Below are positions 12,746 to 31,610 of a stretch of 64,000 bases of DNA, piece by piece; positions within the stretch are counted from its first letter, which is position 1, and the number at the start of each line of letters is the position of its first letter. The stretch spans positions 26,845 to 90,844 of the forward strand of contig DATIHX010000008.1 of assembly GCA_035480235.1 (NCBI GenBank), written 5' to 3'. A program made the position numbers and the translations under genes. Below the pieces are notes generated by a model. It made no database searches, was not told the origin of the DNA, and was given only the letters and a program-made list of their open reading frames with translations. The DNA is from Candidatus Saccharimonadales bacterium (GTDB lineage Bacteria; Patescibacteriota; UBA1384; 2-12-FULL-50-11).

Positions 12746-12786
12746 CAAAGAAATACCCTTAAATTAACTAAAGGAGACCTACATAC

Positions 12787-14193: not shown

Positions 14194-14266
14194 CATCGCC
14201 AAACCTTATAGCACCTCCGAGGTGTAACTGGGGGTTAAAAAAGCGGGCCGTAAAGGCCCGTTTTGG

Positions 14267-14890
14267 CTAACTAATTGCTAGGACCGGCTGAGGGAATTCT
14301 GTTAAGAATCCCAATAACCGGGCCTGATCTTCAAATCGCGCTAACATCGCCAGTTCTTCGACTGTCCAATCTGCAATATCCGCCTCAGCTGTCAAGTAGA
14401 CTCCCTGTTTCTGGAACTCTTTGTTCAAGTATCTACTACCGTAATAGACTGAAATCCGAAGACATGTTGTGTTTACGAAACCAGGAAGTATCGTATTGCT
14501 GATTAAAAAGTCCAAATTGCCGCCGTAGCCAGCACTGAGCCAGTGAACAATGCAGCTCTTGAGGCCAGCAATAGTTACTGAATACTCCCTTAAGCGATTC
14601 AATCCTGCCTCGCGAAAGTGTATCCGGTCGTAGACTGAGCCAGTGGCAAATTTGAATGCTTGGACATTGGCATCGTACGGCTGATCTCGCCTTTCAGAGC
14701 TGAAGAACTCGACTTTTGGCGGCTCGTCTCGGACCAGCTCAAGAGTTATTCCGGTTTTTATATAACCGGGTGGGTACAAGGGCTCAAGATCGCCCCACAA
14801 CTGAATAGCGCTGTCCGGGATCAAATCAAGAAGCCGTTGAATGGCCTCGGGACTAAGTGGGCTTTGAAATTCAAATGCTGTAATGTGCAC
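14267..14890 (-). CDS. Hypothetical protein.
   Basis: ORF only, on the strand opposite its neighbours. Confidence 0.45.
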   Translation of the reverse strand: MHITAFEFQSPLSPEAIQRLLDLIPDSAIQLWGDLEPLYPPGYIKTGITLELVRDEPPKVEFFSSERRDQPYDANVQAFKFATGSVYDRIHFREAGLNRLREYSVTIAGLKSCIVHWLSAGYGGNLDFLISNTILPGFVNTTCLRISVYYGSRYLNKEFQKQGVYLTAEADIADWTVEELAMLARFEDQARLLGFLTEFPQPVLAIS

Positions 14891-15015
14891 TGCTTTCCTC
14901 CTATCCGTTTAGCAGAACGATAATGGCATAGTACGCCAGAAGAAGAAGAAAATCAATTGTAACTTCCTGCCTAGACTACTGAAACGGCTCGAATATACTG
15001 GTTGTATGCATCAAT

Positions 15016-15167
15016 ACTTGACCCCGCACTATGTCGGCCGAATCTTTGGCTCCCAATTTTCTAATACTCAGCTTACCTCATTGGAGTATTCTACAGAATG
15101 AGAATTAGTTATAAGCGACGCCAAAGATATAGGGAAAATTGTCGGCCGGAAAGTGCGGGGTTGACAC
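15016..15167. repeat. About 27-bp imperfect inverted repeats (15016-15043 and 15139-15167) flanking about 95 nt upstream of clpC.
   Basis: cttgaccccgcactatgtcggccg pairs with cggccggaaagtgcggggttgac. Confidence 0.5.
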
Positions 15168-15168
15168 A

Positions 15169-15188
15169 ATGTAAAGTTCGCTTTACAT
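15169..15188 (+). promoter_or_regulatory. Perfect palindrome ATGTAAAG-ttcg-CTTTACAT between the TTGACA at 15161 and the TATAAC at 15193, immediately upstream of a near-leaderless clpC. Candidate repressor operator.
   Basis: Seen directly. I found no CtsR heptad or CIRCE element. Confidence 0.5.
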
Positions 15189-15200
15189 TGGCTATAACAA

Positions 15201-17702
15201 ATGCCCAGTAATTACTTCCACAACAGGTTTAGCGAGACGGCCCAGAAGATTTTGCGTGATAGCGAAGTGATCGCCAGCGCCATGGCCGCCGGTATCGACA
15301 CCCAGCACTTGTTGGCATCATTAGCTAACACGCCCGGCACATACTCGTACGAAGCGCTGCGAGAGTTAACCGTCACCCCAGAAAAAATTGGCGCCACTAT
15401 CCACAACCATCAAGACATTATTAAAGCCGTCCAAGGCATCTCGCCCGATATGCGGCGAATTTTGAAAGCCGCTTACAGCCGAGCGGCCCACTACGACACG
15501 CCGACGGTTGATTCCGAGCACATTCTGCTGGCTCTGGTGAGCACCAAAGATTGCAACGCCTACCAAGTCCTAACCCAGATGGATGTGGACCCGAAACTCT
15601 TGCGCGATCAACTGGAGGATTATTTTGAACAAATTCACCAGGAGTTAGCTGAGCACCAAGATAGTGCCGGTAGCGAAGAAGAGCTGGAAGACGACGAGCA
15701 CGACCACTTCGCCCAACCGATGTTGCCGAATCACCAACAAGCGCCAAACCGGCCAAAAACGGCGATCGAGTATTTCACCACCGACCTGACTAAACTGGCG
15801 AAAACCGGCAAACTCGACCCTGTTATCGGCCGCGACAAAGAAACCCGCCGGGTCGTTCAAATTCTCAGCCGCCGGACCAAAAATAACCCGGTCTTAACGG
15901 GTGAGCCGGGCGTGGGGAAAACGGCGATTGCTGAAGGCTTGGCTCAAAAAATCGCCGGTGGTGAGGTACCGAGCCAATTGGCCGACAAACGGGTTCTATC
16001 GCTGGACTTAGCCCTGCTGATCTCTGGCACAACCTATCGCGGCCAGTTTGAAGAACGAGCCAAAAAACTGCTCGACGAAATTATTAAAGCTGGCAACGTC
16101 GTGCTCTTTTTAGACGAAATTCACAGCATTATCGGCGCCGGCGCCGCCGAAGGCTCGATCGATATGAGCACTATTTTAAAACCGGCCTTGGCTAAAGGCC
16201 AGCTCCGCCTGGTTGGCGCCACCACTAACGACGAATACCGCAAATACATCGAGAAAGACCCGGCCTTAGAACGCCGCGTCCAACGCGTTCAAGTGGAAGA
16301 ACCGAGCGTCGAGGAAACCATTGCCATTTTGCACGGTCTGAAAGGGCATTACGAAAAATTCCACAACGTGACGATTAACGACGAAGCGATCACTGCGGCG
16401 GCCGACTTGAGCAAACGCTACGTTAGTGACCGGTTTTTGCCCGACAAAGCCATCGACTTAATCGACGAAGCGGCGGCGGCCACCCAGCTCGAAACCGGTC
16501 AGCTGAAACTTTCCAACCAGCTACTGGAATTAGAAAAACGCCGCGCCCAAGCTAACAGCGAGCACCAGAAAGCCGCTGAGAACATGGAATACGAGAAAGC
16601 CGCCGAGTATCGGGTCCTAGAATTGCGATTAGTCAGCGAGATCGACCGTCTCAAAACTAAATTACCGAAGCGCACCGCCCCACGAGTAATTAACCGCGAA
16701 GACATCGCCAAGATTGTCTCGATGACCACCGGCGTGCCGGTGACGGCACTGGAGAAAACCGACCGAATCCGCTTGACCAATTTGGAGAAAGTCCTCAAAG
16801 AACACATCGTCGGCCAAGACGAAGCGATTCAAAACATCGCCGCCGCCATTAAACGCTCGTCAGCAGGTGTTTCCGACCCCAATCGGCCGCTCGGCTCGTT
16901 CATTTTCCTCGGCCCCACCGGCGTCGGTAAAACCGAGCTCGCCAAAGTCTTAGCTCGGGAAGTCTACGGCCGCCCAGAAGCCCTGGTGAAAATTGATATG
17001 AGCGAGTTTATGGAAAAACATAACGCCTCCCGCCTGGTTGGCGCGCCGCCCGGCTACGTCGGTTACGAAGACGCCGGCAAACTAACCGAAACCATCCGCC
17101 GGCAACCGTACAGCGTCGTCTTGCTCGACGAAATCGAAAAAGCTCACCCCGACGTCTTTAATATGCTCTTACAAATTATGGAAGACGGCTACCTGACCGA
17201 CGCCAAGGGCCGCCGCGTCAATTTCCGCAACACCATTATTATTATGACTTCCAACATCGGCATGGCGGAATTAAACCGGGCTTCGGCGATCGGTTTCAAA
17301 ACGGCTGGCGATAAGCAAGAAAGCCGGTACGAAGAGATTAAAAACCAGGTCATCGAAAAAATTAAAGACCATTTCCGGCCAGAATTCATTAACCGGCTCG
17401 ACAAAATTATCGTCTTTAAACCGCTCGGTCAAGAAGAGATTAAAGAAATTATTAACCGCCAACTGGCTCAACTCAACCGCCGCCTGGGCTTAGACGGCAT
17501 TAGTTTGGATGTTGCTGATAGCGCTAAAGACCTATTGAGCGAAAAAGGCTTCGATCCGGAATTTGGGGCCCGGCCGATCCGTCGGGTGATTACCGAGCTA
17601 ATCGAAGATCCGCTGTCCGACCTGATCTTGGGCGGCAAAGTGGCTGTCCGCCGGGCGCTGCGGGTGCTACGCAAAGGCAGCAAGCTGACGATCGTCAAGT
17701 AA
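15201..17702 (+). CDS. clpC: ATP-dependent Clp protease ATP-binding subunit ClpC-type (Clp_N repeats, two AAA+ modules, UVR-like middle domain).
   Basis: [15 protein letters not shown] and [12 protein letters not shown] Walker A motifs, plus the [12 protein letters not shown] motif. Confidence 0.9.
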
Positions 17703-17791
17703 CCAAAAACCGGGCCGGAAACCCTTGACTTCTGAGCGGTTATAAGGTATAGTTTGGGCGTCCCACAAGAGGGGATGAACATCACAGGAGA

Positions 17792-18100
17792 ATGAATATG
17801 AAACGGATTTCTACAAAGTTTTTCCTCGCCGCGATCGGCGTCTTTGTCCTTTGGTCGCTACTCGGTCCGATCGCCACGAATAACGACCCCTACGTCGTCT
17901 TGGCCTGGCCGAATCCGCTTTTCGTCGGTTCGCTCGTTCTCGGGCTTTTAGGTTTTATTGCCCTTCAGAATGAAACCCAGCAACAGCTCAACGTTGAGCG
18001 TTGCCGTCAAAATAAGCTCGAAGAAAAGCTTCAGCCGCTTGATGACGAAGTAGCAGAGTCGGTCCTTTGGGCCCGAACTCGTCAAGCTTTGGGGATCTAA
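17792..18100 (+). CDS. Small membrane protein, hypothetical.
   Basis: Two predicted TM helices and an RBS. Confidence 0.4.
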   Translation: MNMKRISTKFFLAAIGVFVLWSLLGPIATNNDPYVVLAWPNPLFVGSLVLGLLGFIALQNETQQQLNVERCRQNKLEEKLQPLDDEVAESVLWARTRQALGI

Positions 18101-18159
18101 AACCCAAGCTCAGCCCCGCGCCAATTTGGCCGGGGCTTTTTCTCTACACAAAAATGGCC

Positions 18160-18189
18160 TTGACTTGTTCGGTTTTTGTTCGCTATGGT
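18160..18189 (+). promoter_or_regulatory. Promoter of the [95-aa ORF]-dinB operon with a putative LexA box GTTCGGTTTTTGTTCG (18167-18182) between TTGAC and the -10.
   Basis: The identical 16-mer also sits in the lexA promoter. GTTC-N7-GTTC is the direct-repeat LexA box type. Confidence 0.55.
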
Positions 18190-18197
18190 AAGTATAC

Positions 18198-18485
18198 ATG
18201 GCGGGGGAGGCGAAAGAAAAAATTGGCGAAACAATTCGGGTACTGGCCAGTTTTTCAGAGGCCAAAATCCGGATTCATTTTTTTCACTGGCGCGACCAAA
18301 TATTCAAAGTGGACTCGGTGAATTTGTTTCATATCGAAAAAGACGGCAATAAAAAACGCTACCACTTCGCGGTGTCGGCCAAGGGCAGCGATTACCAGAT
18401 TGCCTTCGACCCGGTAAGCTTAGAGTGGCAGTTGGTGGATAGCGTAATCACCCCCTTCCGTGGCTGGAATCTAAACGTAAGATGA
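18198..18485 (+). CDS. Hypothetical 95-aa protein, SOS-box regulated and translationally coupled to dinB (ATGA overlap).
   Basis: Position and coupling only. Confidence 0.5.
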   Translation: MAGEAKEKIGETIRVLASFSEAKIRIHFFHWRDQIFKVDSVNLFHIEKDGNKKRYHFAVSAKGSDYQIAFDPVSLEWQLVDSVITPFRGWNLNVR

Positions 18486-19744
18486 GCAGAATCATCTTAC
18501 ATTTAGACATGAACTCGTACTTCGCCACCATGGAGCAACAGGCCTACCCGAGCTTAAGAGGCAAGCCGGTGGGCGTGGCGGGAAAAGGCCAAAACGAACG
18601 AACGGTCATTACCGGAGCCTCGATTGAGGCGAAAAAGTTTGGTCTGTATTCGGGTATCTCAACCTGGGAAGCCAAGCGGCTATGCCCGGAGCTAATTATT
18701 ATTCCGGCCGATTACGATCGCTATATTTTTACTAGTAAACGGATCTTTAGCCTACTGGAGCGTTTCACGCCCACCGTTGACGTTTTTTCCATTGACGAGT
18801 GCTTCCTAGAGCTACCAAATTCCACCGACTGGGCAACCGCCGAAAAGATGGCTCATCAAATTAAAAAACTGATCCAGACCCAAATAGGGAGCTGGCTAAC
18901 CTGCTCAATCGGCATCTCGTACGGCAAAACTTTGGCTAAGTTAGCCAGCGAGCTGCAAAAACCCGACGGTTTGGTGGTGATTCGGCTGGAGACGTTTGCG
19001 AAAATGGCGGCCGTAACCCCCGTCCAAGAGCTTTGCGGCGTCGGCCACCGTATTCGGCCGCGGTTGAACCAACTGGGTATTACAACTATTAGCGAGTTAG
19101 GCGCCGCGCCGCCAAAAATGCTTATTCAAACATTTGGCAACCATACCGGCAGCTGGCTGCACCGGATCGGTAACGGCCTGGACGATGATATACTGCGATC
19201 GTTCCGCGACTTACCGCAAGAAAAATCGGTGGGCCACTCGTACACGTTGCCGCGCGACGTTAATTCACTGGAAGACGCTAAAAAGGTTTTACTGCTATTA
19301 AGCGAACGGGTGGGCGTTCGGCTGCGCCGTAAAAACCTGATCGGCCGAACAGTTTCGGTCTATATTCGCTTTAACGACCGAACTGGTTGGGGTCAGCGAA
19401 AATGCCAAAAAGAGTTTGTGCTGGACGGCTACCAAATTTACCAAGCCGGTGTTCAACTCATCCAGTATTTGCCGCCCAGCCGGCCGATTCGGCTGGTGGC
19501 GATTACCATTAGCGACTTAGCCAAACAAACCGAAACGACCCGACCATTATTTGAAACCGACCGTCGGCACGAGCAGCTAATTAAAGCCGTTGATCGCGTT
19601 AACAGCCGCTACGGCGAATTCACCGTTCATCGGGCAGTTTTAGCCAAAATCAAATCCCGGATTTTTAACCTGCCGGACGGGCGGGTCAAACGCCTTTACT
19701 TGCCACAAGTGACGGAGGTAAATCCGTTCACCAAACGGATTTAA
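18482..19744 (+). CDS. dinB: DNA polymerase IV (Y-family).
   Basis: ILHLDMNSYFATMEQ...SIDECFLEL blocks. Confidence 0.92.
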   Translation: MSRIILHLDMNSYFATMEQQAYPSLRGKPVGVAGKGQNERTVITGASIEAKKFGLYSGISTWEAKRLCPELIIIPADYDRYIFTSKRIFSLLERFTPTVDVFSIDECFLELPNSTDWATAEKMAHQIKKLIQTQIGSWLTCSIGISYGKTLAKLASELQKPDGLVVIRLETFAKMAAVTPVQELCGVGHRIRPRLNQLGITTISELGAAPPKMLIQTFGNHTGSWLHRIGNGLDDDILRSFRDLPQEKSVGHSYTLPRDVNSLEDAKKVLLLLSERVGVRLRRKNLIGRTVSVYIRFNDRTGWGQRKCQKEFVLDGYQIYQAGVQLIQYLPPSRPIRLVAITISDLAKQTETTRPLFETDRRHEQLIKAVDRVNSRYGEFTVHRAVLAKIKSRIFNLPDGRVKRLYLPQVTEVNPFTKRI

Positions 19745-19815
19745 CGGTTACTTTTGAGGCTAATTTGTTGTATAATCGACCCATCCTGCAAAGGACGCAA
19801 ATTAGGAGCTAAAAA

Positions 19816-20409
19816 GTGATGAGAAACAAAGATTTCCCCCCACTCGTGAGATTCGAACGCATTGTCTGCGCCTTTATCATCCACCCCAGGACCCACCGAG
19901 TTCTAACGGTCCGGATGGATGGGAACGCCAAGCCCCCAAGCAAGCTTTCCAAAGGAACGGAGCGTCACTTACCCGGAGGAAATGTCAAACACAACCAAAC
20001 GCCCGAAGTCGCGATCCGGCACCAACTGTTAGACAAACTCAACATCACGGTGGAAAAAGTGCACGAATTCATGACGATGGTTCGAAGCGGCACGCTCAAA
20101 GATCCTAACGGAGAACCAGTGTTGGGCGGCAAGGTCTTTGTAACGACCTACTGGTACATTATCGAGCCAGCAGAGCAAAGCTTGGCCAACATCCGAGTAA
20201 ATCCAGGGTTTGACTTAATGGTCGAAAGTGAACTTTGGTCCGAGTTTCATCAGCTGATCGATGGCGACTCCGAGCATTGTTTAGGTGCCACCGCCGGTGA
20301 ACGAACGCCCTATTTAGATATCCAGCCTATCTGGCCGTACGGACACTCGTACCAAAAGCACGAAGCCCCTAGGGAACAAATCGGTTTGCAACAAGCCAAA
20401 CACGATTAA
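19816..20409 (+). CDS. Hypothetical protein with a degenerate Nudix-like box (LPGGNVKHNQTPEVAIRHQLLDKLNI).
   Basis: Weak motif. It sits between dinB and lexA. Confidence 0.45.
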   Translation: MMRNKDFPPLVRFERIVCAFIIHPRTHRVLTVRMDGNAKPPSKLSKGTERHLPGGNVKHNQTPEVAIRHQLLDKLNITVEKVHEFMTMVRSGTLKDPNGEPVLGGKVFVTTYWYIIEPAEQSLANIRVNPGFDLMVESELWSEFHQLIDGDSEHCLGATAGERTPYLDIQPIWPYGHSYQKHEAPREQIGLQQAKHD

Positions 20410-20415
20410 GTCGCC

Positions 20416-20440
20416 GACCCGCGCCCTGCGGGTCTTTTTT
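20416..20440 (+). terminator. Intrinsic terminator GACCCGC-gccct-GCGGGTC + TTTTTT.
   Basis: Seen directly. Confidence 0.7.
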
Positions 20441-20453
20441 GTAACTACCACCC

Positions 20454-20482
20454 TTGACACGTTCGGTTTTTGTTCGTAAGTT
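20454..20482 (+). promoter_or_regulatory. lexA promoter: TTGACA (20454-59), a 17-nt spacer made up of the GTTC-N7-GTTC box (20461-20476), then TAAGTT.
   Basis: Seen directly. Consistent with autoregulation. Confidence 0.6.
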
Positions 20483-20506
20483 GGAGATAAGTAAACAAGG
20501 AGGCGC

Positions 20507-21115
20507 ATGCTCACACCCAAACAAAAACAAATTCTCGATTTCATTCAGGCTTTTATCGGTGAACACGATTATGCGCCGAGTTACCGGGAGATCGCTGACC
20601 ATTTCGAGTTTAGTTCGGTGGCGACGGTCGCCGAACACGTGGATAATTTGAAAAATAAAGGCTACCTTTCCAGCGACGAATCTACCTACCGGTCGCTGAA
20701 AGTCACTGGCGTGGAGATCGAGCAGGGCGGCAGTTTCCTAGGCTTCTTAGTGCCGCTAATGGGGACGATCCAAGCCGGTAAGCCGATCGAGGCGGTGCGG
20801 ACCAGCGAAACATTGGAAATTCCCCGCGATATGATGACCAAAAACGTCTTCGCCCTGAAAGTGAAAGGCGACTCGATGATCGAGGACGCCATTATGGAAG
20901 GGGATTACGTTGTCGTTGAGCCGTGCGAGTCGCCCAAAAACGGCGATATTGTGGTAGCGCTGATTAATAAAGACGAGGTGACGTTAAAGCGTTTTTACCG
21001 CGAGAAAGACCACATTCGTTTGCAACCGGCCAACCGCAAATATCAGCCGATTCGCGTCAAAAAGGTGATTATCCAAGGCCGGGTGCGGGGTGTAATCCGA
21101 AAATTTGGCGGCTAA
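20507..21115 (+). CDS. lexA: LexA repressor (S24 peptidase).
   Basis: N-terminal wHTH. C-terminal blocks VKGDSM and KR..V.G.V. Confidence 0.92.
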   Translation: MLTPKQKQILDFIQAFIGEHDYAPSYREIADHFEFSSVATVAEHVDNLKNKGYLSSDESTYRSLKVTGVEIEQGGSFLGFLVPLMGTIQAGKPIEAVRTSETLEIPRDMMTKNVFALKVKGDSMIEDAIMEGDYVVVEPCESPKNGDIVVALINKDEVTLKRFYREKDHIRLQPANRKYQPIRVKKVIIQGRVRGVIRKFGG

Positions 21116-21343
21116 GCCAAACTGGGGAATACGTTTAACCTCCGCCGGTAGGCGGAGGGCTATGAGGATGTATATATCCCCTTATAGTGCAAATGAAACA
21201 CTCCAAGGGGCGCAAGAGCTAGCTAAAGAACATGGTTCTTGCGGCGCACGAGGTTGCAAGGCTCGCGGCAGCACGAGGCTGCTGAACGCTGAAAAAATTA
21301 TCTAATAATAATTATATTGTGTCAAGGGCCAGGGCTGTGGTAT

Positions 21344-21601
21344 ATGTTAACTATGCCGCGAATCAGCCAACGGAAATTATTCTTATTCGGCCGGTACTCA
21401 TTAGCATTATTACTGCCGAAAAAATGGCTACGCGAACTGGGCATAGAACCGGGCGCGAAGGTGCAATTGGAGTTCGATAAAACCCGCTCACGGATTGTGA
21501 TTCGGTTAAACACCGCCGCCCCCACCAAACCAGCTAAGGGAACCCAAAGCCCGAAAAGACTCGCCAAGGACGCTGGCTGGCAACCCATCCCGCCACTATA
21601 A
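21344..21601 (+). CDS. AbrB/MazE/SpoVT-like swapped-hairpin DNA-binding protein, tentative.
   Basis: GRYSLALLLPKKWLRELGIEPGAKVQLEFD...RIVIR pattern. The start is uncertain. Confidence 0.4.
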   Translation: MLTMPRISQRKLFLFGRYSLALLLPKKWLRELGIEPGAKVQLEFDKTRSRIVIRLNTAAPTKPAKGTQSPKRLAKDAGWQPIPPL

Positions 21602-21652
21602 GTTCTCGGCCAGGGAGCTTGAGAAATATTGCAGCAAAGCTAAGCTGGGTAT

Positions 21653-22198
21653 ATGGCCCGCGATTTTGATTTTGTCCGCCAAAGACCCAACAACCAACCG
21701 GCTGCTCCGAACCAGCCGGTTAAGCCGCTACCGAGAAGCGTCGTCAGCTTACCGCGACCGGGCAAAAAAATATCAGTCTGGATCTGGGTGGTTATCGTTT
21801 TCTTACTGGTGGCCTGGGTGGTGTTCTTTTATTTTCTCTCATTGAAACCGGCCGCGGTCAGCCGAAATACAGCGCCCACGGTTTCGAGTGGCGTGGCAAG
21901 CGGCGGCACGGCCGTTCTGGGCGCCCAGACCACGAACGCCCTGACAATAACGCTTTATAACAGCGGCGCCGGTAGCTTGGCGGTTGACGCTTTAACTCAG
22001 AAACTAAAAACCCAAGGTTACACCACTCAGAACTCGGGCGACTCACAGTTCCAGCTCGATCAAACCTATATCTGGTACCAACCAGCCTATTTGAACGACG
22101 TCCAAAAAATTCAAACACTCCTTGGTAGTAAAAAGGTGGCGTTACGGCCTTACAGCGGCACCGGACCGTACCAAATCCTCATACAGCTTGGTCCGTAA
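21653..22198 (+). CDS. LytR_C (LytR cell-envelope-related transcriptional attenuator C-terminal) domain membrane protein.
   Basis: TM helix followed by ITLYNSGAGSLAVDA...TYIWYQPAYLNDVQKIQ. Confidence 0.7.
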   Translation: MARDFDFVRQRPNNQPAAPNQPVKPLPRSVVSLPRPGKKISVWIWVVIVFLLVAWVVFFYFLSLKPAAVSRNTAPTVSSGVASGGTAVLGAQTTNALTITLYNSGAGSLAVDALTQKLKTQGYTTQNSGDSQFQLDQTYIWYQPAYLNDVQKIQTLLGSKKVALRPYSGTGPYQILIQLGP

Positions 22199-22215
22199 AA
22201 ACGGCCCTAAAAGTA

Positions 22216-22244
22216 TTGACCACTTTTGTGAGATCTGCTAAAGT
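22216..22244 (+). promoter_or_regulatory. Sigma70-like promoter TTGAC-17-TAAAGT.
   Basis: Seen directly. Confidence 0.5.
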
Positions 22245-22250
22245 GTTTCT

Positions 22251-22496
22251 ATCCAACACGGAAATTGGGCTAACCAATGAAGTGGCGGTGAAACACACAA
22301 GACTCTGGCAATAGCTAGAGCAGGAGCCCTACCAATGTCAACGCACTCCCCGCCTTGCCCGGTCAACGCACATTATTTAGGATTGGTGATTTCGAACGCT
22401 GGCACGATGGCCGGCAACACGGACAAGCACGGTGACGCGACCTGACGGTCGGCGCCCACCCAGCCCTCGGCATCGCCGGGGGCTCCCTTTTTATAT
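22251..22496 (+). ncRNA. Candidate stand-alone small RNA of about 245 nt, running from a promoter to an intrinsic terminator (GCCCTCGGC-atc-GCCGGGGGC + U-rich, 22463-22496). Its 5' and 3' ends can pair into a 6S-like closing stem. Identity unknown.
   Basis: No credible ORF. The promoter, terminator and end complementarity (GGGCU...AGCCC) were read by eye. Confidence 0.4.
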
Positions 22497-23045
22497 TTGC
22501 CAAATCCAGAATTTCCTTTCATCATAAGTATAATGAATACTTACCCCAATCAGCGTGTTGGCGTCTTTGTGGATGTACAAAATCTCTATTACAGCGCTAA
22601 GGCGATGTACGAAAGTAACGTCCATTTTGGCCGGGTTCTGGAAGCTGCCACCAAAGGCCGACAGCTAATCCGGGCATTTGCCTACGTGATTAAATCGGAA
22701 GCCCCGAAAGAACAGGGCTTTTTTGAGGCTTTGGAAAAAGCCGGCTTCGAAGTCCGGACGAAAGATATCCAGGTTTTTGCCGACGGTCAGAAAAAAGGGG
22801 ACTGGGACGTCGGGATCGCCATCGACGCCGTTAAAACGGCTGATCGCCTCGACGCGGTGGTCCTAGCCACCGGTGACGGCGACTTTATTCCGCTGGTGAC
22901 GTATTTGCGCGAGAACAAAGGCTGCCGGGTGGAAGGCATCTCTTTTGGCCGCAGCACTTCAACAAAACTGATTGAGACGCTGGATTCTTTTACCGACCTC
23001 GACGAAAAAGTTAGCCATTTCGTCTTCCGGTCGCGTCATGCTTAA
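22497..23045 (+). CDS. NYN (LabA/YacP-like, PIN-like) domain protein.
   Basis: RVGVFVDVQNLYY...DWDVGIAIDAV...LATGDGDF. The start may be the TTG at 22497 or the ATG at 22533. Confidence 0.7.
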   Translation: MPNPEFPFIISIMNTYPNQRVGVFVDVQNLYYSAKAMYESNVHFGRVLEAATKGRQLIRAFAYVIKSEAPKEQGFFEALEKAGFEVRTKDIQVFADGQKKGDWDVGIAIDAVKTADRLDAVVLATGDGDFIPLVTYLRENKGCRVEGISFGRSTSTKLIETLDSFTDLDEKVSHFVFRSRHA

Positions 23046-23763
23046 ACTTAGTCACGTTTCGGTTAAAAGTGGCTGGAGCGCTGGATTGAACGATATCTCA
23101 CTAACCGCTCAAACGGGGGAAGTTGTCGCGATTATCGGGCCAAACGGCAGTAGTAAATCACTTTTATGCCGAACCATCGCCGACCCGGATATTGGCTTTA
23201 ACGGCCAAATTATTATTAACCATTTTGACGCCCGAAGGGAGCCCGACAAAACCAAACGGCAAGTTGGCTACGCGGCCGCGGAGCGTCAAATGGAGCCGTA
23301 TCTAACCGGCTTTGAGTACCTGGAGTTAATCGGTAGTTTTTGCCAACTGGCGCCTGGCGTCAGAGAGCGGCAGATTTTGACGCTAGCCGAACAATTTGGC
23401 TGTGTCGGCGAACTTTACACCTTAGGTGAGCGCCAAACCCTGGCTCTCAACCAAAAAATCCGCTTAATCGCTTCGCTTTTAGCCGAACCGCCGCTGGTCG
23501 TTTGGGACGAGCCGACTTTATTTTTAGACGAACTCGGCCGACAGCAGGTAATGTTATCCGTCAAAAAACTGGCAAAAAATGGCACGACGGTGGTTATGGC
23601 CACCAACGACGTAGCACTAGCCGAGACTATCGCCGACCGAATTGTGGTAATGATGGGCGGTCAGGTGCTAACCGAAGGAACGGTAGGCCAAATCAATCAA
23701 CTGGCTGGCACGCCGCGCCGCGATTTGGCAGCCGCCTTTCGGCATTTAACTGCTCATGATTGA
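23038..23763 (+). CDS. ABC-type ATPase with slightly degenerate motifs.
   Basis: Walker A GPNGSSKS, a degenerate signature TLGERQ, and Walker B LVVWDEPT. Confidence 0.65.
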   Translation: MLKLSHVSVKSGWSAGLNDISLTAQTGEVVAIIGPNGSSKSLLCRTIADPDIGFNGQIIINHFDARREPDKTKRQVGYAAAERQMEPYLTGFEYLELIGSFCQLAPGVRERQILTLAEQFGCVGELYTLGERQTLALNQKIRLIASLLAEPPLVVWDEPTLFLDELGRQQVMLSVKKLAKNGTTVVMATNDVALAETIADRIVVMMGGQVLTEGTVGQINQLAGTPRRDLAAAFRHLTAHD

Positions 23764-25162
23764 CTGGCAGCTGATTAGTTGGCCGGTCAAACGGTGGTTG
23801 CGGCACACACCCCAAGTTAGCGAAGCTGGCTGGTGGCTGACGGTAATCATCAGCGTTACCTACGTCATTACCTGCGATGTTTTTTACCGGTTGGGCTTCC
23901 AGCAGCCCAGTTTACTCGAAATAACGGTCGGCTTTTTTTTAGTTCTTGGTTACGCTCTTGGGCTTTGGCTTGGTTACAGCCGCGTGCTCGGCCAACGGCC
24001 GAACCAGTGGCGGTTAGTTAATCGAATTAATTGGGCCTACCGAGAAATGCTGCCGGGTCTGATAATTTTCCTCCTGGTGGCCGGCGCCACGCTCAACAGC
24101 TTCCTAGCCGGAGCTCAAATTGCCGCCGGCCGCAGCGACGGGTTAATTTTCGTCCAAAACTTTGGGCTCTTGGCCGCCGTGGCCGGCACCGTTATTTTTG
24201 GCAGCTCACTTTCGGTGATAATTAAGGCGATCAGCCGCTCGGGAGTGGTCCGGTTAGCGACCTTAGCCCTGGTAATCTATGCCTCAATTCAGCTAGCCAC
24301 TTGGTTACGGCTACCGCTTAGCGCCTTGGTCAACAGCTTGACGGCGGCCGACTCGAATCAGATTACGCTATCGGTCGTCGGCCTGATCGGATGGTTTGGC
24401 TTGACTGTAGCGATTAGCGAACTGATTTTGCCACACTGGCCGATTAACCCCAAACCAGCCCGCCAATTTATCGCCACCCGCCTGCCAACCAAGGGTCTAG
24501 GTGGCTTTGGGCCGGGCACGGCCATCTTCAGCGCCGAAATTATTCGTTTTCTGCGCAGCAGCCGCTTGTTGCGGCGGTTTATTTTAGCGGTAGCAATTGT
24601 AGTTGCTGGCCTGGTGACATTAAACTTGTTTAGCCACATTTACCCGCAAAATGCCGAACAGCTCTTTATTACCTTGCTGGCTCTGACGATTGGTTGGCTA
24701 ATGGCCCTGATCGGCCAAGATAGCGGTTGGGCGGCAGCCGAACGGATCCAGCAGTACCGAATGTGGCCAGTCGGTTCCCGGAAAATTTTAACGGCGGTTT
24801 TCGCTAGTGGGGTCGCTGTTGCCGTCATCGTGTCGGCAGTTTTGATTGAATTATTCGCTGCTGGCGCTGCCCCGATCAGCCAACTCTTTCTACTAACTGA
24901 AATAGCTTTACTGGTTTACGGCGCGGCGTTTGTTGCCGGTCGGGCCGGTCACCAGCTCGTTAAAACCACTGACGACTCGTGGCTTGGCGAAATCGCCACC
25001 GGAGCGCTGGCCCTGCTAGTGATGATTTTCGGCGCAATTGCCCTATTTTTCTTTGGCATTGTGGTGCCAAGCCTGACCGCCTTAGTGGTAGCGGCTTGGG
25101 CTGGCGGCGTCGTGCTAATTTTTGAGCGATTACGCCGGCGAAACGAAAGCAATAGCCGATGA
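23756..25162 (+). CDS. Polytopic membrane protein, a likely permease partner of the preceding ATPase.
   Basis: Many hydrophobic segments, and an overlapping start. Confidence 0.55.
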   Translation: MIDWQLISWPVKRWLRHTPQVSEAGWWLTVIISVTYVITCDVFYRLGFQQPSLLEITVGFFLVLGYALGLWLGYSRVLGQRPNQWRLVNRINWAYREMLPGLIIFLLVAGATLNSFLAGAQIAAGRSDGLIFVQNFGLLAAVAGTVIFGSSLSVIIKAISRSGVVRLATLALVIYASIQLATWLRLPLSALVNSLTAADSNQITLSVVGLIGWFGLTVAISELILPHWPINPKPARQFIATRLPTKGLGGFGPGTAIFSAEIIRFLRSSRLLRRFILAVAIVVAGLVTLNLFSHIYPQNAEQLFITLLALTIGWLMALIGQDSGWAAAERIQQYRMWPVGSRKILTAVFASGVAVAVIVSAVLIELFAAGAAPISQLFLLTEIALLVYGAAFVAGRAGHQLVKTTDDSWLGEIATGALALLVMIFGAIALFFFGIVVPSLTALVVAAWAGGVVLIFERLRRRNESNSR

Positions 25163-25271
25163 AGCCGGTCCGGGAACACGAAACCTATGGCAGGCGGTTG
25201 CTACGCCGGCTAATTATTGCTGGGCTGATTCTTTTTATTGTCTTGAGTTCTTTGTTACTCTTTATACCAAA

Positions 25272-26633
25272 ATGAACCCAATCAGCATTCCCAATTGGCT
25301 AAAAACTTTGGCCGAACAATTTCAAGCCAAAGGCCGGCAATTTTACATCGTTGGTGGGGCGATTCGCGACGGCTTGCTCGAACGAGAAATTAACGAATGG
25401 GACGCCGCTACTGACGCCAAACCAGCCGAAATCGCCACTATTTTACGCGCCGCCGGCTGTCGGCAGATCGGCACCATCGGCGCCAAATTCGGCACAATCA
25501 CCGCCACTTTTGAGAACGAAACACTGGAAGTCACTACTTTCCGCACCGACCAATACCAAGCAGACTCTCGGGCACCGGCCGTCCAGTTTGGCAGTTCACT
25601 TTTAGACGATTTAGAGCGACGCGATTTTACCGTCAACGCGATCGCTTTCAACCCTTTGAACAACGCCCTTCATGATCCGTTCCACGGTCAGACCGATTTG
25701 AAAGCCAAGATTATCCGAGCCGTTAATGAACCAAAAAAGCGTTTTGAAGAAGACCCCTTGCGGATGCTCCGGGCCATTCGCTTAGCTGTTCAACTTGATT
25801 TCACGATTGAAAAGGAAACGTTAGTAGCGATCGAAAAAGAAAAAGAGCGAATGGGCATTTTATCTGCCGAGCGAATCGCCCAAGAATTCAATAAAATCTT
25901 GTTAAGCGAAAAGCCGAGCCAGGGGCTCGAACTGATTGTTGAAAGCGGCCTCATTAGCTACGTTTTACCGGAATTAATCCCGTCAATTGATCTGGAATTT
26001 GACCCGGGGGAACATAAAGACATTTATCACCATATCTTACAGGTACTTGATAATACCCCGCCGCGCTTGGAGCTACGCTGGTGCGCCCTACTCCACGACA
26101 TCGCCAAGCCGCTGACCCGCAAGAAAATCGGCGGCGAGTACCACTTTTTAGGCCACGAAGTGGTTGGCGCTCGGTTAGCCAAAACGATTCTCCGCCGGTT
26201 GAAATACTCCAACGAGTTCGTCGATTACGTTAGTAAGTTGGTTTACTTGCACCAGCGCATCCCGAACGATCAAGGCAACTGGACCGACGGTGCCGTCCGC
26301 CGGTTTGTCCGCGACGCCGGCGAGGCGCTACAAGACCTATTCACCTTCGCCGAAGCTGACTCGACCGGTAAAAACGAGCGTAAATTAGCCAAATATCGCG
26401 CTGGTCGCGACGAATTGAAGAACCGGATCGAAGTGCTCGAGAAAGAGGCGGAGATCGCTAAAATCAAAAGCCCACTGTCTGGCGAAGAATTAATGAAGCT
26501 GTTTCACCGCCCAGCCGGACCATGGATCAAACCGATTAAAGAAAAACTGCTAGCGCTAGTGCTCGACGGCGAGCTGAGCGAAAAAGATAAAACCAAAGCC
26601 GAAGAAATTGCCCGAACAATCGTCAAAAACTAA
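25272..26633 (+). CDS. cca: CCA tRNA nucleotidyltransferase (class II polymerase-beta head plus HD domain).
   Basis: FYIVGGAIRDGLL...RRDFTVNAIAF, HD motif around LLHDIAKP. Confidence 0.85.
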   Translation: MNPISIPNWLKTLAEQFQAKGRQFYIVGGAIRDGLLEREINEWDAATDAKPAEIATILRAAGCRQIGTIGAKFGTITATFENETLEVTTFRTDQYQADSRAPAVQFGSSLLDDLERRDFTVNAIAFNPLNNALHDPFHGQTDLKAKIIRAVNEPKKRFEEDPLRMLRAIRLAVQLDFTIEKETLVAIEKEKERMGILSAERIAQEFNKILLSEKPSQGLELIVESGLISYVLPELIPSIDLEFDPGEHKDIYHHILQVLDNTPPRLELRWCALLHDIAKPLTRKKIGGEYHFLGHEVVGARLAKTILRRLKYSNEFVDYVSKLVYLHQRIPNDQGNWTDGAVRRFVRDAGEALQDLFTFAEADSTGKNERKLAKYRAGRDELKNRIEVLEKEAEIAKIKSPLSGEELMKLFHRPAGPWIKPIKEKLLALVLDGELSEKDKTKAEEIARTIVKN

Positions 26634-26657
26634 AAAACCGCCGAATGGCGGTCGGGG

Positions 26658-27053
26658 TCAGGCAGCTTGGAGGCTCGGTAACTTCAATCCCATCTCCCGA
26701 AGGATGCTTTTCAGCCGAATGATTGGGTAGCTCTCCGCTCTCCCAACCGGTGGGTGAAAACAGACGCAGTTGAGTGACCGCATTTGCACGTCGCGGTACA
26801 CTTTCATCGGTTTATGGTTAGTCAGCGACGCTGGTGAGTAAATTTCGACCGCCTCAACCTGGTCGAGATACTCCTGATAGCAATCATGATCGGCGATAAT
26901 GAGAATATAGCGCCCTTCTTCGCGAACTGTCGAACGGGCAGCTAGGCCCGGCACCAACAGGTCCGGCTCAAAGACGATGATCAGTATTTTTCGTTCCATC
27001 ATAAGGTGCTCCGATATATCCAAAATTCTAGCATAAAATTGTTTAGTTGTCAC
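26658..27053 (-). CDS. Hypothetical protein.
   Basis: ORF only. The terminator for this gene is ACCGCC-gaat-GGCGGT + T-run at 26634-26655. Confidence 0.4.
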   Translation of the reverse strand: MTTKQFYARILDISEHLMMERKILIIVFEPDLLVPGLAARSTVREEGRYILIIADHDCYQEYLDQVEAVEIYSPASLTNHKPMKVYRDVQMRSLNCVCFHPPVGRAESYPIIRLKSILREMGLKLPSLQAA

Positions 27054-27093
27054 GACTTGGCAGACGCAATAATCGCGGTTAAGCTAATTAAAG

Positions 27094-28260
27094 ATGGACG
27101 AATTTAACCCAGCGACCCGGCCACCCGAAACCAGCCAACCGCTCAAACACTCTCGTTTCAAAGCCTGGCTGGCGGCCCGGAAAAAGTTATTACTGATTAC
27201 TGTGCCGATTATTAGCTTGGTAATAGTGCTGGCAGTTTTTTGGTCAATTAATAATAACCAACCGGTCAGTAGCGGCCAAATCAAAATAAAAACGACGACC
27301 CCAACCCCAGCTGTGAAAGTAGCCAGTCCGCTTACTGGCCTCTTAATCGACGCCGACACGGCTAAGAAACCCGTCGCAGCCGTGATGATCGAGAACTCCA
27401 CCGACGCTCGGCCACAATCCGGTTTGAGCCAAGCTGGTGTGGTCTACGAAGCGATCGCCGAGGGCGGCATCACTCGTTATATGGCCTTGTTCCAAGAGCC
27501 GTTTCCGTCCGTTTTAGGCCCAGTCCGGAGTGTGCGGCCGTATTACGCCGACTGGGTGAGCGAGTACAACGTGCCGATCGTTCATGCCGGTGGCAGCCAA
27601 CCGGGGCTGGCCAAAGTGAATAGCGGCAGTTTTAAAAATGTTGAGGCATTGGTTCAAGCCAGCGGTTTTTACCGCGCCACCGACCGAGCCGCGCCGCACA
27701 ATTTGTATACCAAAACCGATTTGTTGGCTAATTTGCTGACCAAAATGAAATTTGACGCTGCTCCCGCCTTCACTGGCTTGGCCCGCAAAGACGATAAGCC
27801 ACCGGTCGCCACCACCACGCCAGCCACCGCCACCGTTCCGGCCAGTACCGTCCCAGCGGCGGCCGCTCACCCGAAAATTAACATTACCTTCGGTATCGCC
27901 GCCTATAACGTCCAGTACGATTACGATTTAGCGACCAATAGTTACAAACGAACAAACGGCGCCGCGGCGACCATCGACCGCAACACCAACGCTCAAGTCA
28001 GCGTCAAAAACGTGGTCGTCCTGCAGTTCCCAGTTAGTTATAGTACCCAAGGCAACGGCAAGCCGGAAACAATTTACAAACTAACAGGAAGCGGCAAAGC
28101 CTTCTTCTTTATGGACGGCAACGCCGTGGTGGGCACCTGGAGCAAAACCAGCGACACCGCTATTACTACTTACGCCGACGCTAACGGCACTGCCATCACC
28201 TTTAACCGCGGCAATACTTGGATTTCCGCCATCCCCACCGGCAACGCCGTGACGTATTAA
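27094..28260 (+). CDS. DUF3048 (YerB-like) secreted or lipo-protein.
   Basis: VMIENSTDARPQSGLSQAGVVYEAIAEGGITRYMALF block. Confidence 0.75.
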   Translation: MDEFNPATRPPETSQPLKHSRFKAWLAARKKLLLITVPIISLVIVLAVFWSINNNQPVSSGQIKIKTTTPTPAVKVASPLTGLLIDADTAKKPVAAVMIENSTDARPQSGLSQAGVVYEAIAEGGITRYMALFQEPFPSVLGPVRSVRPYYADWVSEYNVPIVHAGGSQPGLAKVNSGSFKNVEALVQASGFYRATDRAAPHNLYTKTDLLANLLTKMKFDAAPAFTGLARKDDKPPVATTTPATATVPASTVPAAAAHPKINITFGIAAYNVQYDYDLATNSYKRTNGAAATIDRNTNAQVSVKNVVVLQFPVSYSTQGNGKPETIYKLTGSGKAFFFMDGNAVVGTWSKTSDTAITTYADANGTAITFNRGNTWISAIPTGNAVTY

Positions 28261-28298
28261 GAAGCTACTAGCTTCTGGCAACTAGCTTTAGGGCTAGT

Positions 28299-28322
28299 AA
28301 AAAACTGCCGATTGCTCGGCAG
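28299..28322 (-). terminator. Intrinsic terminator for 28329..29045: CTGCCGAG-caa-TCGGCAG + TTTTTT as read on the minus strand.
   Basis: Seen directly. Confidence 0.6.
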
Positions 28323-28328
28323 TGATAG

Positions 28329-29045
28329 TTAGTAAACAGCCTTAGCTAACAGCGCTGCGCTCTGGCCATCGTAAGCACTGTAGAGCAAGTCAATTTGCCC
28401 GGCTTCAAAACCGGCAAATTCCTCACCCCTTGGACCAGACACTCGCTGCACCAGCTCGGCAAATGTCCCGTAGGCTTCCGTAAGACCGAAGAAGCATTGA
28501 CGAAGCGTTGCCCCTGCCGAGTCCGTAAACTCAAAAGGAGAGCCTATAAATTCAAAGCCCTGGCAGCCAATTGCCTTGCGGACCTGCTCTAGATCGGCGC
28601 TCTCGTCTACGCGATAGGCGAGATGCTGAGGCTTGCCGGGAAAGAGCTCGCCACCGTCACCGCCGACACAGTGAGTGCCGTATAGGCGTAGGAAGTTTGA
28701 TAGGGGTGCGTCGTGTTGCAAATCCTCCAAGTTCGGCACCGAGAGTCCAATCATTGGCTGCCCAGCTTTGTGGGCAAGGGCAATATGCCGAGCTGGATAG
28801 ATCATCGTCCGCCAAACGCCAGCAAGGTCATAACCACGCCCTTGCCAATAATCACCGAATGCTTTTTCCATGTCGGGGTGAACAACGAATGTTAGGTGAT
28901 CTTCCATCGTTACCCCTTTTACTTCTTCTTTTAGAAGCGGGAGGGCGGGAAGGGACGAAAACCGCCCTAAAAGATATTGCATTGAACCACTAAGCATTTT
29001 TCCTCCAAATTGTTCGCCGTTACCAGCAAGAACGAATTGAGGCAA
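28329..29045 (-). CDS. VOC (glyoxalase/dioxygenase-fold)-like protein, tentative.
   Basis: Two beta-alpha-beta-beta-beta-like repeats. The gene looks GC-richer than its surroundings. Confidence 0.45.
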   Translation of the reverse strand: MPQFVLAGNGEQFGGKMLSGSMQYLLGRFSSLPALPLLKEEVKGVTMEDHLTFVVHPDMEKAFGDYWQGRGYDLAGVWRTMIYPARHIALAHKAGQPMIGLSVPNLEDLQHDAPLSNFLRLYGTHCVGGDGGELFPGKPQHLAYRVDESADLEQVRKAIGCQGFEFIGSPFEFTDSAGATLRQCFFGLTEAYGTFAELVQRVSGPRGEEFAGFEAGQIDLLYSAYDGQSAALLAKAVY

Positions 29046-29382
29046 TAATAAACCAATTTCTGGATAAAATCAACTCCTTGCCGCCCATAAAATAGTTCCT
29101 AAAACCGGAGGAGCAAACAGTGCCAGTTGCCGGTTTGCAGCCGGAGGTTTTCACAATACCCCAGTGGGAAGCTTGCGGGGGTGAGAAAGCGAATGCTTGG
29201 AGCTTTCGAACGGAAGCCGCTGCAAAAGTTATAATTTTTCCCTAGCTTTTGCCAAGCGGCGAGCGAGTAGCCAGGAGTTTGAGTGTGTAGGGGGCGGCTT
29301 AGCAAATTAGCCCCCTCACCCTCAAATAATAGTCAGTGGCGCTAGCCACATACAGATAGTGAGAAACACTATTCTGGTTTCC

Positions 29383-29409
29383 AAAAAGGACCCATTCGGG
29401 TCCTTTTTG
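29383..29409 (-). terminator. Bidirectional hairpin terminator AAAAA-GGACCC-attc-GGGTCC-TTTTT downstream of the Rpf-like gene.
   Basis: Seen directly. Confidence 0.6.
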
Positions 29410-29427
29410 TTTCAGTTCTTAACAACT

Positions 29428-30123
29428 TCAGCCGACGTAGCGCGCCCAGCAAGAACGACTAGCGTTCCAGGGGGCGGTACCGCGCAACTGCAGCGCTTGG
29501 CTAGCCTTTTGATCTTGAATTTCAGCCGGTGCGTCCTTAGCTCTCTGGTAACCACCGAAGCGGGCCCAGGTCGAGTCGAGGAACTGATAAGCGCCGGAGG
29601 CGCTAGAGCGGCGATTTTGGGCCTGATAATCGTTACGGCTTTCGCAGTAACGAATAGCGGCTAACATATCGCCCTGCGGCTTAGCGGCAACTGGCGTAGT
29701 GATGGCTTTTTTGGCGACAGCTTGCGCAGCTGCTTGCTTAACCGCTTCTGAGGCTTTCAGGCGAGCTTGCTCATCCAAATACAGCGAGCTCGGCGTGACT
29801 TCGATACTAATTGCCCGAGCACCACTAACTTCCGCTACTTGCGGCGTTAAGGCTTGCACCGTCGGCATTGGGCCAAAGGCTTGAACGCCGGCTACGGTGG
29901 TGGTAATCGGCGAAGTGGAAGCGGCGCTAACCAGCGTCATCGGCAAGATGAGCGTGGTAGCTAACACGACATAACCGACATAACGTAAGCTCTTGGCTTT
30001 GTTAAGATTGCGTTTGGTTCGAACGAACTGAACTTTACCAGCCTTAAAGATCCGGCCGGCAACCCTCCCTGTATTTTCGACGATTAAGTCGAGAATAATA
30101 GGGATAGTATAAATACTAATCAA
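29428..30123 (-). CDS. Secreted Rpf-type (resuscitation-promoting-factor-like) lytic transglycosylase domain protein.
   Basis: IRYCESRNDYQAQN...GAYQFLDSTWARFGG...APWNASRSCW matches the Rpf transglycosylase-like fold, with the catalytic Glu in CES and a C-terminal Cys pair. N-terminal TM/signal region present. Start codon uncertain. Confidence 0.75.
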   Translation of the reverse strand: MISIYTIPIILDLIVENTGRVAGRIFKAGKVQFVRTKRNLNKAKSLRYVGYVVLATTLILPMTLVSAASTSPITTTVAGVQAFGPMPTVQALTPQVAEVSGARAISIEVTPSSLYLDEQARLKASEAVKQAAAQAVAKKAITTPVAAKPQGDMLAAIRYCESRNDYQAQNRRSSASGAYQFLDSTWARFGGYQRAKDAPAEIQDQKASQALQLRGTAPWNASRSCWARYVG

Positions 30124-30304
30124 CTCCTTTTTAATTTGCCCACTTGGGGCGGTTCCGAATATGACGCTTCAAGGCGTTCGTTACCGAACGGCTAACAAAA
30201 AGCTTCCTTTCGGAAGTATGGGCAGTATAGCTGATTGGGAAAGCTTGTCAAGCCTTTGGGGGTAAAGTAAGACCCCGGACGAACCGGGGCCGAATGCTTA
30301 GGAG

Positions 30305-30487
30305 CTAGGTCCGAACCATTTCCTTGCGTCCCTCCGGCGCGTCACGTCCGAACATGCCCTCGTAATCCCTGCCAGTTGGCGTGTAGGTGGTGAAATTTGG
30401 CCCCTTGGGAACTTGGCACAGGCCCAGCTGCTTAACCATCTCATACACTTTCGAGCTATTAACTCGCCCCTGACTATTATTATCCAT
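30305..30487 (-). CDS. Small 60-aa protein with a strong RBS.
   Basis: GGAGGG lies 7 nt upstream of the ATG. Confidence 0.35.
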   Translation of the reverse strand: MDNNSQGRVNSSKVYEMVKQLGLCQVPKGPNFTTYTPTGRDYEGMFGRDAPEGRKEMVRT

Positions 30488-30659
30488 CGAATTACCCTCC
30501 TGGTAATTTTTAGTGCGAAGCAACGCCAGGATAGCATATGCCGTCCTTAAAGTCAAGGCCATTGCCTTAAATTTAACGTCCCTCGTTACGCACTTTCAAT
30601 ATTTTAACCGCTTTCTATTGCCGGCGAAAGAAAAAGCCCCGCCGAAACGGGGTGGTGGC

Positions 30660-31196: not shown

Positions 31197-31276
31197 GAGC
31201 CACCTCCTAAAGAACGAATATACTTCCTTGTACCGCTTTGCTGGCCTGGAGACAACTTTTTCGCTACGCTGTTGGC

Positions 31277-31609: not shown

Positions 31610-31610
31610 A

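Follow-up and report, generated by a model that had tools for sequence, protein, structure and literature searches.

Small-protein mRNAs and dual-function small RNAs (sRNAs) are known from several bacteria, among them SR1/SR1P of B. subtilis, SgrS/SgrT of E. coli and RNAIII/delta-haemolysin of S. aureus. They are short monocistronic transcripts of about 200-500 nt with their own promoter and intrinsic terminator, in which a structured non-coding part is combined with an open reading frame (ORF) of about 26-45 codons led by a Shine-Dalgarno sequence (SD). The unit described here shares these features, a likeness that comes from general knowledge and not from homology, as no sequence or Rfam relationship links it to any of the three. 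It also differs from them in that no base-pairing target was found for it (the 5' end of the downstream NYN gene was tested), and in that it is confined to a few genomes with near-identical neighbourhoods in an uncultured Patescibacteria lineage. SR1P and SgrT are said to be far more conserved than the peptide of this unit.

Three other classes of system invite comparison. Leader-peptide transcription attenuators of the trp, his and thr type have the same order of parts, namely a promoter, a short SD-led and weakly constrained ORF, an intrinsic terminator and then a gene. Unlike them, our locus has a conserved promoter between terminator and gene, it lacks both runs of regulatory codons and a conserved antiterminator, and its spacing from stop codon to terminator varies. 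6S RNA (Rfam RF00013 and related models) is similar in size class and in promoter-to-terminator layout, but the unit fails the covariance models, does not fold into a rod around a central bubble, lacks conservation and has a ribosome-binding site and an ORF. With the small ORFs of type I toxin-antitoxin systems it shares, as far as general knowledge goes, a lineage-specific, fast-evolving and intergenic character and a structured 5' UTR; in contrast to them, its peptide is hydrophilic, no antisense promoter or RNA was seen, and it is present as a single copy in the window, by which we mean the whole 64,000-nt stretch of DNA that was analysed.

Promoter and terminator of the spacer unit

The unit is located in the 334-nt spacer (22199-22532) between a LytR_C-like gene (21653-22198) on its 5' side and an NYN-domain gene (22533-23045) on its 3' side. 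The insert, counted from the LytR_C stop codon to the -35 box of the NYN promoter, measures 298 nt and has a G+C content of 59.5%, versus about 48-52% nearby. The whole spacer is identical in the Logan assembly of run SRR9179560 (L083), which was assembled separately from the metagenome-assembled genome (MAG), though possibly from the same reads. The gene order LexA, ~85-aa gene, LytR_C-like, NYN, ABC is kept in about 20 related species, and the nearest relatives carry the labels Patescibacteria or Berkelbacteria.

On the plus strand, the spacer holds a sigma70-type promoter (22216-22244) that consists of a -35 box TTGACC (22216-22221), a 17-nt spacer with a TG extension (22236-22237) and a -10 box TAAAGT (22239-22244). 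Transcription is predicted to start at about 22251, and from there ~245 nt lead to a T-run at 22488-22496. The intrinsic terminator (22462-22496, plus strand) is formed by the stem-loop 22462-22484, AGCCCTCGGC-ATC-GCCGGGGGCT, with 10 pairs, of which 8 are G-C, followed by CCC and a T-rich tail (CCCTTTTTAT). Both elements had been proposed in an earlier, sequence-only reading of this DNA, and both held up: the promoter with its TG-extended -10 box recurs in relatives, and the clean terminator ~245 nt downstream ranked as the strongest of the 52 terminator-like sites in the 20 kb from 12000 to 31999. Such sites are enriched in that interval (52 vs 32.4 ± 5.9 expected), and several other strong ones also sit in short gaps between ORFs. 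In a local consensus scan, neither promoter-like sites (2 vs 1.0 ± 1.1 expected from shuffles) nor terminator-like sites (3 vs 2.7 ± 1.7) went beyond chance, and the minus strand inside the unit gave no promoter-like or terminator-like site.

Distribution of the insert and promoter of the NYN gene

Homologous loci were found by looking up the proteins that share a 90% cluster with the NYN protein of the window. Four of them have a long spacer of like architecture: L089 (GCA_034680565.1, 911-nt spacer), L090 (GCA_964463625.1, 403 nt), L091 (Logan SRR21686408, 331 nt) and L093 (Logan SRR28521200, 656 nt upstream of NYN, with the contig cutting the LytR_C end). The NYN genes of L089-L091 are 94-97% identical to that of the window as protein and about 80% as DNA. 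Promoter, terminator and their relative positions recur in all four loci, with the unit promoters all directly 3' of the LytR_C stop codon. In L089 and L093 the promoter reads TTGAC(A/C)-17-TGCTAAAGT, as in the window, in L090 TTGACA-17-TACTGT, and in L091, read by eye only, TTGACG-16-TATCAT. The terminator hairpins of L089 and L093 are homologous (AGCCCUCGGC...GCCGAGGGCU), and those of L090 and L091 are different GC hairpins with U-runs.

From the predicted start to the -35 box of NYN, the unit is 246 nt long in the window, 436 nt in L089, 278 nt in L090, 251 nt in L091 and 466 nt in L093. The units are alike at their ends, i.e. in the promoter, the first ~80 nt and the terminator, and variable in the middle. 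The stop-codon context CUGAC is common to the window, L089 and L093, and the remaining unit sequence has diverged to about 30-60% identity between loci. A homologous unit is present in at least three loci (L089, L090 and L093) and, judged by position and architecture, probably also in the divergent L091.

Outside these loci the unit was absent from the relatives inspected. In roughly 20 closest species-representative loci, the syntenic LytR_C-NYN gap is only 0-90 nt, and an nhmmer search of the spacer against 80 species-representative loci found no similarity. Even L085, L086 and L087, whose NYN proteins are 95%, 87% and 84% identical to that of the window, and L088 (also 84%) have a gap of 28-46 nt and no unit. 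Because it is absent from close relatives with 84-95% identical NYN, we infer that the segment is a recent, lineage-restricted insert. The sequence-only reading had put the region forward as a candidate housekeeping sRNA, perhaps 6S-like, and had named a lack of conservation in related genomes as what would speak against it. Conservation was found in a few very close relatives and at no distance beyond a very narrow clade, and as the segment is lineage-restricted, a housekeeping or 6S role is refuted on that reading's own terms.

The same spacer in L092 (JGI 3300064820, 170-520) holds an unrelated insert of 351 nt, with three copies of AACCATAT and then a short GC hairpin. L089 has an extra ~430 nt (2090-2510) between the LytR_C stop codon and the unit promoter, which is G+C-rich and hairpin-rich and has no Rfam match. 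On account of these two insertions, the LytR_C-NYN spacer presents itself as an insertion hot spot. A blastn search within the 64-kb window found no second copy of the unit, and blastn against phage and plasmid collections gave no match to the spacer. Metagenome and viral contigs were also scanned for the peptide pattern, and metagenomes for the DNA pattern of the NYN promoter block, likewise without a match. As tblastn of all six-frame spacer pieces against all loci returned nothing significant, the spacer holds no recognisable gene remnant. A mobile element was also considered and rejected: one copy of the flanking 8-nt repeat CCAAATCC (22171 and 22500) is inside the conserved coding end of LytR_C, and a 9-nt inverted repeat is weak.

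The NYN gene, the unit's neighbour, has a candidate promoter and start of its own at 22497-22535 (plus strand), arranged as TTGCCA (22497-22502), 17 nt, CATCAT (22520-22525), 7 nt and ATG (22533). This TTGCCA...CATCAT block, 3' of the terminator, is kept in each of the five loci with the unit. Close relatives that lack the insert have TTGAAA-17-ACAATA/ACTATA-7-ATG, with the same 39-nt geometry as the window, and relatives show the layout of -35, 17 nt, -10, 7-10 nt and ATG whether or not they carry the unit. The earlier proposal that the NYN gene is served by its own promoter agrees with this conserved candidate, though not in the element then chosen: the TATAAT said to be directly before the NYN start (22529-22534) overlaps the ATG (22533-22535) and for this reason cannot serve it. 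Since the NYN promoter is conserved downstream of the terminator, the insert is a self-contained unit, flanked by the stop codon of LytR_C on one side and by the NYN promoter on the other.

The NYN gene has no SD. Among the 52 long ORFs of the window, only about a quarter have an SD, and a -10-like TANNNT hexamer stands 5-9 nt before the start of 15, versus 6.5% of all ATGs (4.5-fold enriched). Leaderless or near-leaderless mRNAs thus seem to be common in this genome, judging from the upstream motifs. A literature search on leaderless transcription starts in Saccharibacteria, and on 6S RNA in the candidate phyla radiation, found nothing relevant. In L090 (2945-3003), the CATCAT box and the NYN start are set further apart by an insertion of 41 nt, which makes a 14-codon mini-ORF, whose TGA overlaps the NYN ATG (ATGA); the overlap suggests translational coupling in this locus.

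Several further observations concern the neighbourhood. The lexA promoter (20454-20482) reads TTGACA-CGTTCGGTTTTTGTTCG-TAAGTT, and its 17-nt spacer, with GTTC...GTTC as a direct repeat, hardly varies in front of lexA in L086, L088, L090 and L091 and is a candidate LexA operator of the lineage. An SOS-regulated small gene was rejected as an explanation of the unit, as this operator-like spacer is absent from the unit promoter. A NUDIX-like gene (19816-20409) lies between the gene for IMS (DinB-type polymerase) and lexA; the matching position holds a gene of similar size (193 aa) with no family assigned in L090 and no gene in L086 and L091, which is another presence/absence difference in the neighbourhood. 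The spacer between lexA and the 85-aa gene (21116-21343) contains a 45-codon ORF with a GGAGG SD (21168-21305, plus strand) and, on the minus strand, a near-consensus promoter TTGACA-17-GATAAT (21325-21297). Elsewhere in the window, a 60-codon ORF with an AGGAGG SD (30305-30487, minus strand), in surroundings (30100-30600) crowded with promoter-like sites, may be another small gene.

Known RNA families and the leader hairpins

We compared the region with described RNA families. At the gathering score, Rfam models matched only three tRNAs in the whole 64-kb window, all distant from the region. At E ≤ 10, positions 22150-22560 gave no 6S, SRP, RNase P or tmRNA, the very families against which the sequence-only reading had proposed a check, and only sub-threshold noise on the minus strand (HOTTIP_3, CRISPR-DR18 and sR2). 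No match was obtained on L089-L093 at E ≤ 0.1, ARAGORN found no tRNA or tmRNA in the region, and no riboswitch or T-box model of Rfam matched the region or the homologous loci. Both the minimum free energy (MFE) fold and the centroid fold of the 247-nt RNA are multibranched (z = -1.37), with no rod around a central bubble.

Two pairings between the RNA ends had been put forward as the closing stem of a 6S-like structure. In the first, GGGCU...AGCCC, the 5' strand (22268-22272) belongs to the loop of hairpin P1 (see below) and AGCCC is the 5' arm of the terminator; in the second, GGUG...CACC, the CACC partner is missing in L089 and L093. Both are incompatible with the terminator and with P1, which has covariation support. 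The promoter and terminator boundaries and, roughly, the length would suit a 6S-like RNA or another housekeeping RNA. We nevertheless consider such an RNA extremely improbable, given that neither the window nor the homologous loci match 6S, SRP, RNase P or tmRNA at permissive E-values, that the predicted folds are not rods with a central bubble and the closing pairings lack conservation, that close relatives and 80 related species do not have the unit, that its length varies from 246 to 466 nt, and that it contains an SD, an AUG and an ORF.

The structure that is kept lies in the leader. The first predicted hairpin, P1 (22253-22285, plus strand), has an outer helix of CCA(A)C (22253-22257) with GUGG (22282-22285) and an apical helix of AUUGG (22264-22268) with CCAAU (22274-22278). 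A CCA/UGG helix near the 5' end is found in all four alignable leaders. The apical helix is AUUGG/CCAAU in the window and L093, AUCGG/CCGAU in L090, and AUCGG/CCGAC, with a mismatched closing pair, in L089; its third pair is accordingly U-A in the former two and C-G in L089 and L090, and L091 alters two more pairs. The second hairpin, P2 (22303-22320, plus strand), is CUCUGGC-AAUA-GCUAGAG in the window and ends 1 nt before the SD. P2 is predicted at the same place in all five loci, though its stems have no sequence in common; in the four alignable leaders they read CUCUGGC/GCUAGAG, CCCCG/CGGGG, GUCGC/GCGAC and CCUC/GAGG, and the hairpin ends 1 nt before the SD. Five of the seven P2 pairs change on both sides, with 100% of cells paired.

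These counts were put to several controls. The hand-made alignment A6, drawn up in knowledge of the structure, comprises four N-padded leaders. In it, pairing extends to 93.9% of cells, and changes on both sides affect 8 pairs and 12 cells. Such values were reached in none of 500 column shuffles, and pairing fell to 19-45% when the partner strand was slid by 1-3 columns. RNAalifold recovered the same three helices from A6. With L091 added in a manual count, 74 of 78 cells are paired and 11 of 19 pairs show a compensatory change. A perfect stem of the length observed, abutting the SD, arises by chance in 0.002-0.2 of shuffles per sequence, the product being about 1e-8, and the position of P2 thus exceeds chance. 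Within these four to five sequences and on the hand-made alignment, compensatory changes show that the two predicted 5' hairpins are kept.

The folding energies of the single leaders are ordinary (z between -2.8 and +0.9). P1 is part of the MFE fold of the full window RNA, and in the MFE fold of the isolated window leader it is replaced by GGGCU:AGCCC. A covariance model of the leader, R1, matched only its own training sequences and left L091 undetected; it found no other copy in the window, with filters off, or in 89 loci.

Conservation of this kind bears on the reading of the segment as functionless inserted DNA in a hypervariable spacer, whose signals would be present by chance or carried over from the source. 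The hot-spot character of the spacer (the 351-nt insert of L092 and the ~430 nt of L089), a unit length that ranges from 246 to 466 nt, a G+C content of 59.5% against about 48-52% nearby, and the orphan status of the unit in the phage, plasmid, viral, metagenome and species-representative collections searched would all fit it. Against it, the promoter, the compensatory hairpins, SD-AUG and the terminator are retained at about 30-60% identity elsewhere. As the signals are retained while the remaining sequence diverged, selection is required, and we regard functionless DNA as quite unlikely.

The small ORF and the reading of the unit

The sequence-only reading had found no credible ORF between promoter and terminator. 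Of its promoter-to-terminator unit without an ORF, the self-contained unit separate from NYN stands and the lack of an ORF does not: an ATG ORF of 36 codons plus TGA (22335-22445, plus strand; MSTHSPPCPVNAHYLGLVISNAGTMAGNTDKHGDAT) is preceded at 8 nt by the SD AGGAG (22322-22326) and is called as a gene in public annotation. Between its end and the terminator there are 16 nt. Only 2% of the window's ATGs have a strong SD in front of them. The other loci show a similar arrangement: the window has AGGAG-8-ATG at RNA position 85, L089 AAGGA-7-ATG at position 80 with 48 codons, L090 AAGGA-8-ATG at position 79 with 33 codons (36 from an upstream ATG), and L093 AAGGAG-7-ATG at position 82 with 48 codons. 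The SD, a 7-8-nt spacer and an ATG at RNA position 79-85 are therefore found in four of the five loci, with unrelated spacer sequences; since these spacers differ in sequence and are near-constant in length, a working ribosome-binding site is indicated. L091 has GGAGG-9-CTG at RNA position 100, followed by 14 codons and a stop; it has no ATG and stops early, and retains promoter, hairpins, SD and terminator.

The peptides are alike only in the first 6-9 residues, at M-x3-[C/R]-[H/G]-S-P, and about 20% identical overall. In the Ser-Pro motif, the Ser codons vary between UCC, AGC, UCU and UCG and the Pro codons between CCG, CCU and CCC; because these codons differ between loci, the motif points to constraint at the amino-acid level. 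The codon score of the ORF frame (0.13) is the best of six, and it is reached by 3.6% of off-frame windows; among true gene windows it ranks only at the 13th percentile. This G+C-rich region leaves further frames open as well, so that ORF length alone means little. Over the ORF region, the window and L089, the only alignable pair, share 62% nucleotide identity with no excess of substitutions at third codon positions, and the middle part of their homologous DNA is read in different frames. Searches of 5.8 billion clustered and 1.84 billion representative proteins, Pfam and NCBIfam found no homologue of the peptide other than the ORF itself. The repeat proteins P0130 and P0131 were tried as relatives and rejected, as they match via summed repeats, which we judged to be chance. 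The peptide is hydrophilic, without a membrane-spanning stretch. Gene callers are inconsistent, calling the ORF in one genome and missing it in three. In L093 (347-499, RNA positions 304-456), there is a second ORF of 50 codons with the hydrophobic stretch NLAVIAVAISGYSALTCAM; it has no SD, runs through the terminator and has no counterpart in L089.

The main rival to a coding function is a pure non-coding, clade-specific sRNA of ~245 nt, working through base pairing or through binding to proteins, with the SD-AUG-ORF as an incidental feature or a decaying remnant. Conservation is indeed of the RNA type (compensatory hairpins, promoter, terminator). Evolution of the ORF body is close to neutral, its DNA similarity does not depend on frame, no protein relatives of the ORF were found, and L091 keeps the RNA features and not the ORF. 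However, an sRNA of this kind does not account for an SD, an optimal spacer and an AUG kept in place in four of five loci despite variable spacer sequence, or for a Ser-Pro motif kept through synonymous codons that include AGC versus UCN. Neither a conserved single-stranded seed region is evident nor does any Rfam family match. An antisense relation to NYN was examined and rejected: positions 22253-22273 are complementary to NYN codons 3-9 at 17 of 21 nt, and this one candidate target pairs no better than non-cognate or shuffled duplexes. On balance, we think a pure sRNA unlikely, though it deserves to be taken seriously.

The position of the ORF next to the terminator raises the alternative of a cis-acting leader, attenuator or transcriptional insulator for the NYN-ABC operon, in which translation of a leader peptide or an RNA switch would set termination or read-through. 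The layout of promoter, structured leader, short ORF, terminator and gene suits it; so do the window's stop codon, only 16 nt before the terminator stem, the ability of the SD region GGAGCCC (22324-22330) to pair with the terminator's GGGCUCC, and the constant company of the unit with the TTGCCA...CATCAT form of the NYN promoter. Yet that conserved promoter block stands between terminator and NYN, and as NYN has no SD, its translation from read-through transcripts would be poor. From stop codon to terminator there are 16 nt in the window and roughly 75 to 220 nt in L090, L089 and L093; because this spacing varies between loci, coupling between ribosome and terminator is not conserved. L089 lacks the SD-terminator pairing, in all other relatives NYN does without the unit, Rfam gave no riboswitch or T-box match, and inspection by eye showed no conserved antiterminator pairing. 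Control of NYN by the unit is, in our view, very unlikely.

We favour, at about an even chance, a young, fast-evolving and lineage-restricted small-protein mRNA with a structured leader, which possibly also acts as a dual-function RNA through base pairing. In such an mRNA, transcription would start at about 22251 from the near-consensus, TG-extended sigma-70-type promoter, and the 84-nt leader would fold into two hairpins, P1 from +3 and P2 ending 1 nt before the ribosome-binding site. Their probable effect would be a more stable 5' end and an accessible Shine-Dalgarno sequence. Translation would begin at AGGAG-8 nt-AUG (22335) and yield a hydrophilic peptide of 36 residues, and the strong terminator would stop transcription 16 nt after the stop codon, giving a transcript of ~245 nt. 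A near-leaderless promoter of its own would drive NYN in a separate transcript. The sequence comparison shows the signals, their conservation and the covariation of both hairpins; that the unit is transcribed and translated, that its hairpins have this role and that its peptide has a function are inferences. As only the first 6-9 residues are conserved, either the small protein would evolve very fast or the act of translation itself would matter.

A bolder variant is an undescribed dual-function RNA/peptide cassette of a narrow Patescibacteria clade, placed in a hypervariable hot spot directly upstream of an NYN (PIN-like) ribonuclease gene, in which the covarying 5' hairpins and the rapidly diversifying peptide would have a conflict- or host-interaction-type role, e.g. 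as a modulator or substrate of the nuclease; we hold it to be very unlikely. No RNA or protein family described so far includes the unit, while the kind of gene it would represent, a small-ORF transcript and possibly a dual-function sRNA, is well known.

The unit has no bearing on 6S or housekeeping RNA biology, and is a warning against calling regions ORF-less by eye. It is confined to a handful of genomes, with no evident link to a larger question. To our knowledge, hardly anything is known of the small RNAs and small proteins of uncultured, reduced-genome Patescibacteria. For this group, the locus offers a cleanly delimited, covariation-supported small transcription unit and a candidate for a young or fast-evolving small ORF. 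It also points to fast gain, resizing and loss, as the same spacer holds 0, about 250 or about 450 nt, or unrelated inserts, among loci whose NYN is 92-98% identical.
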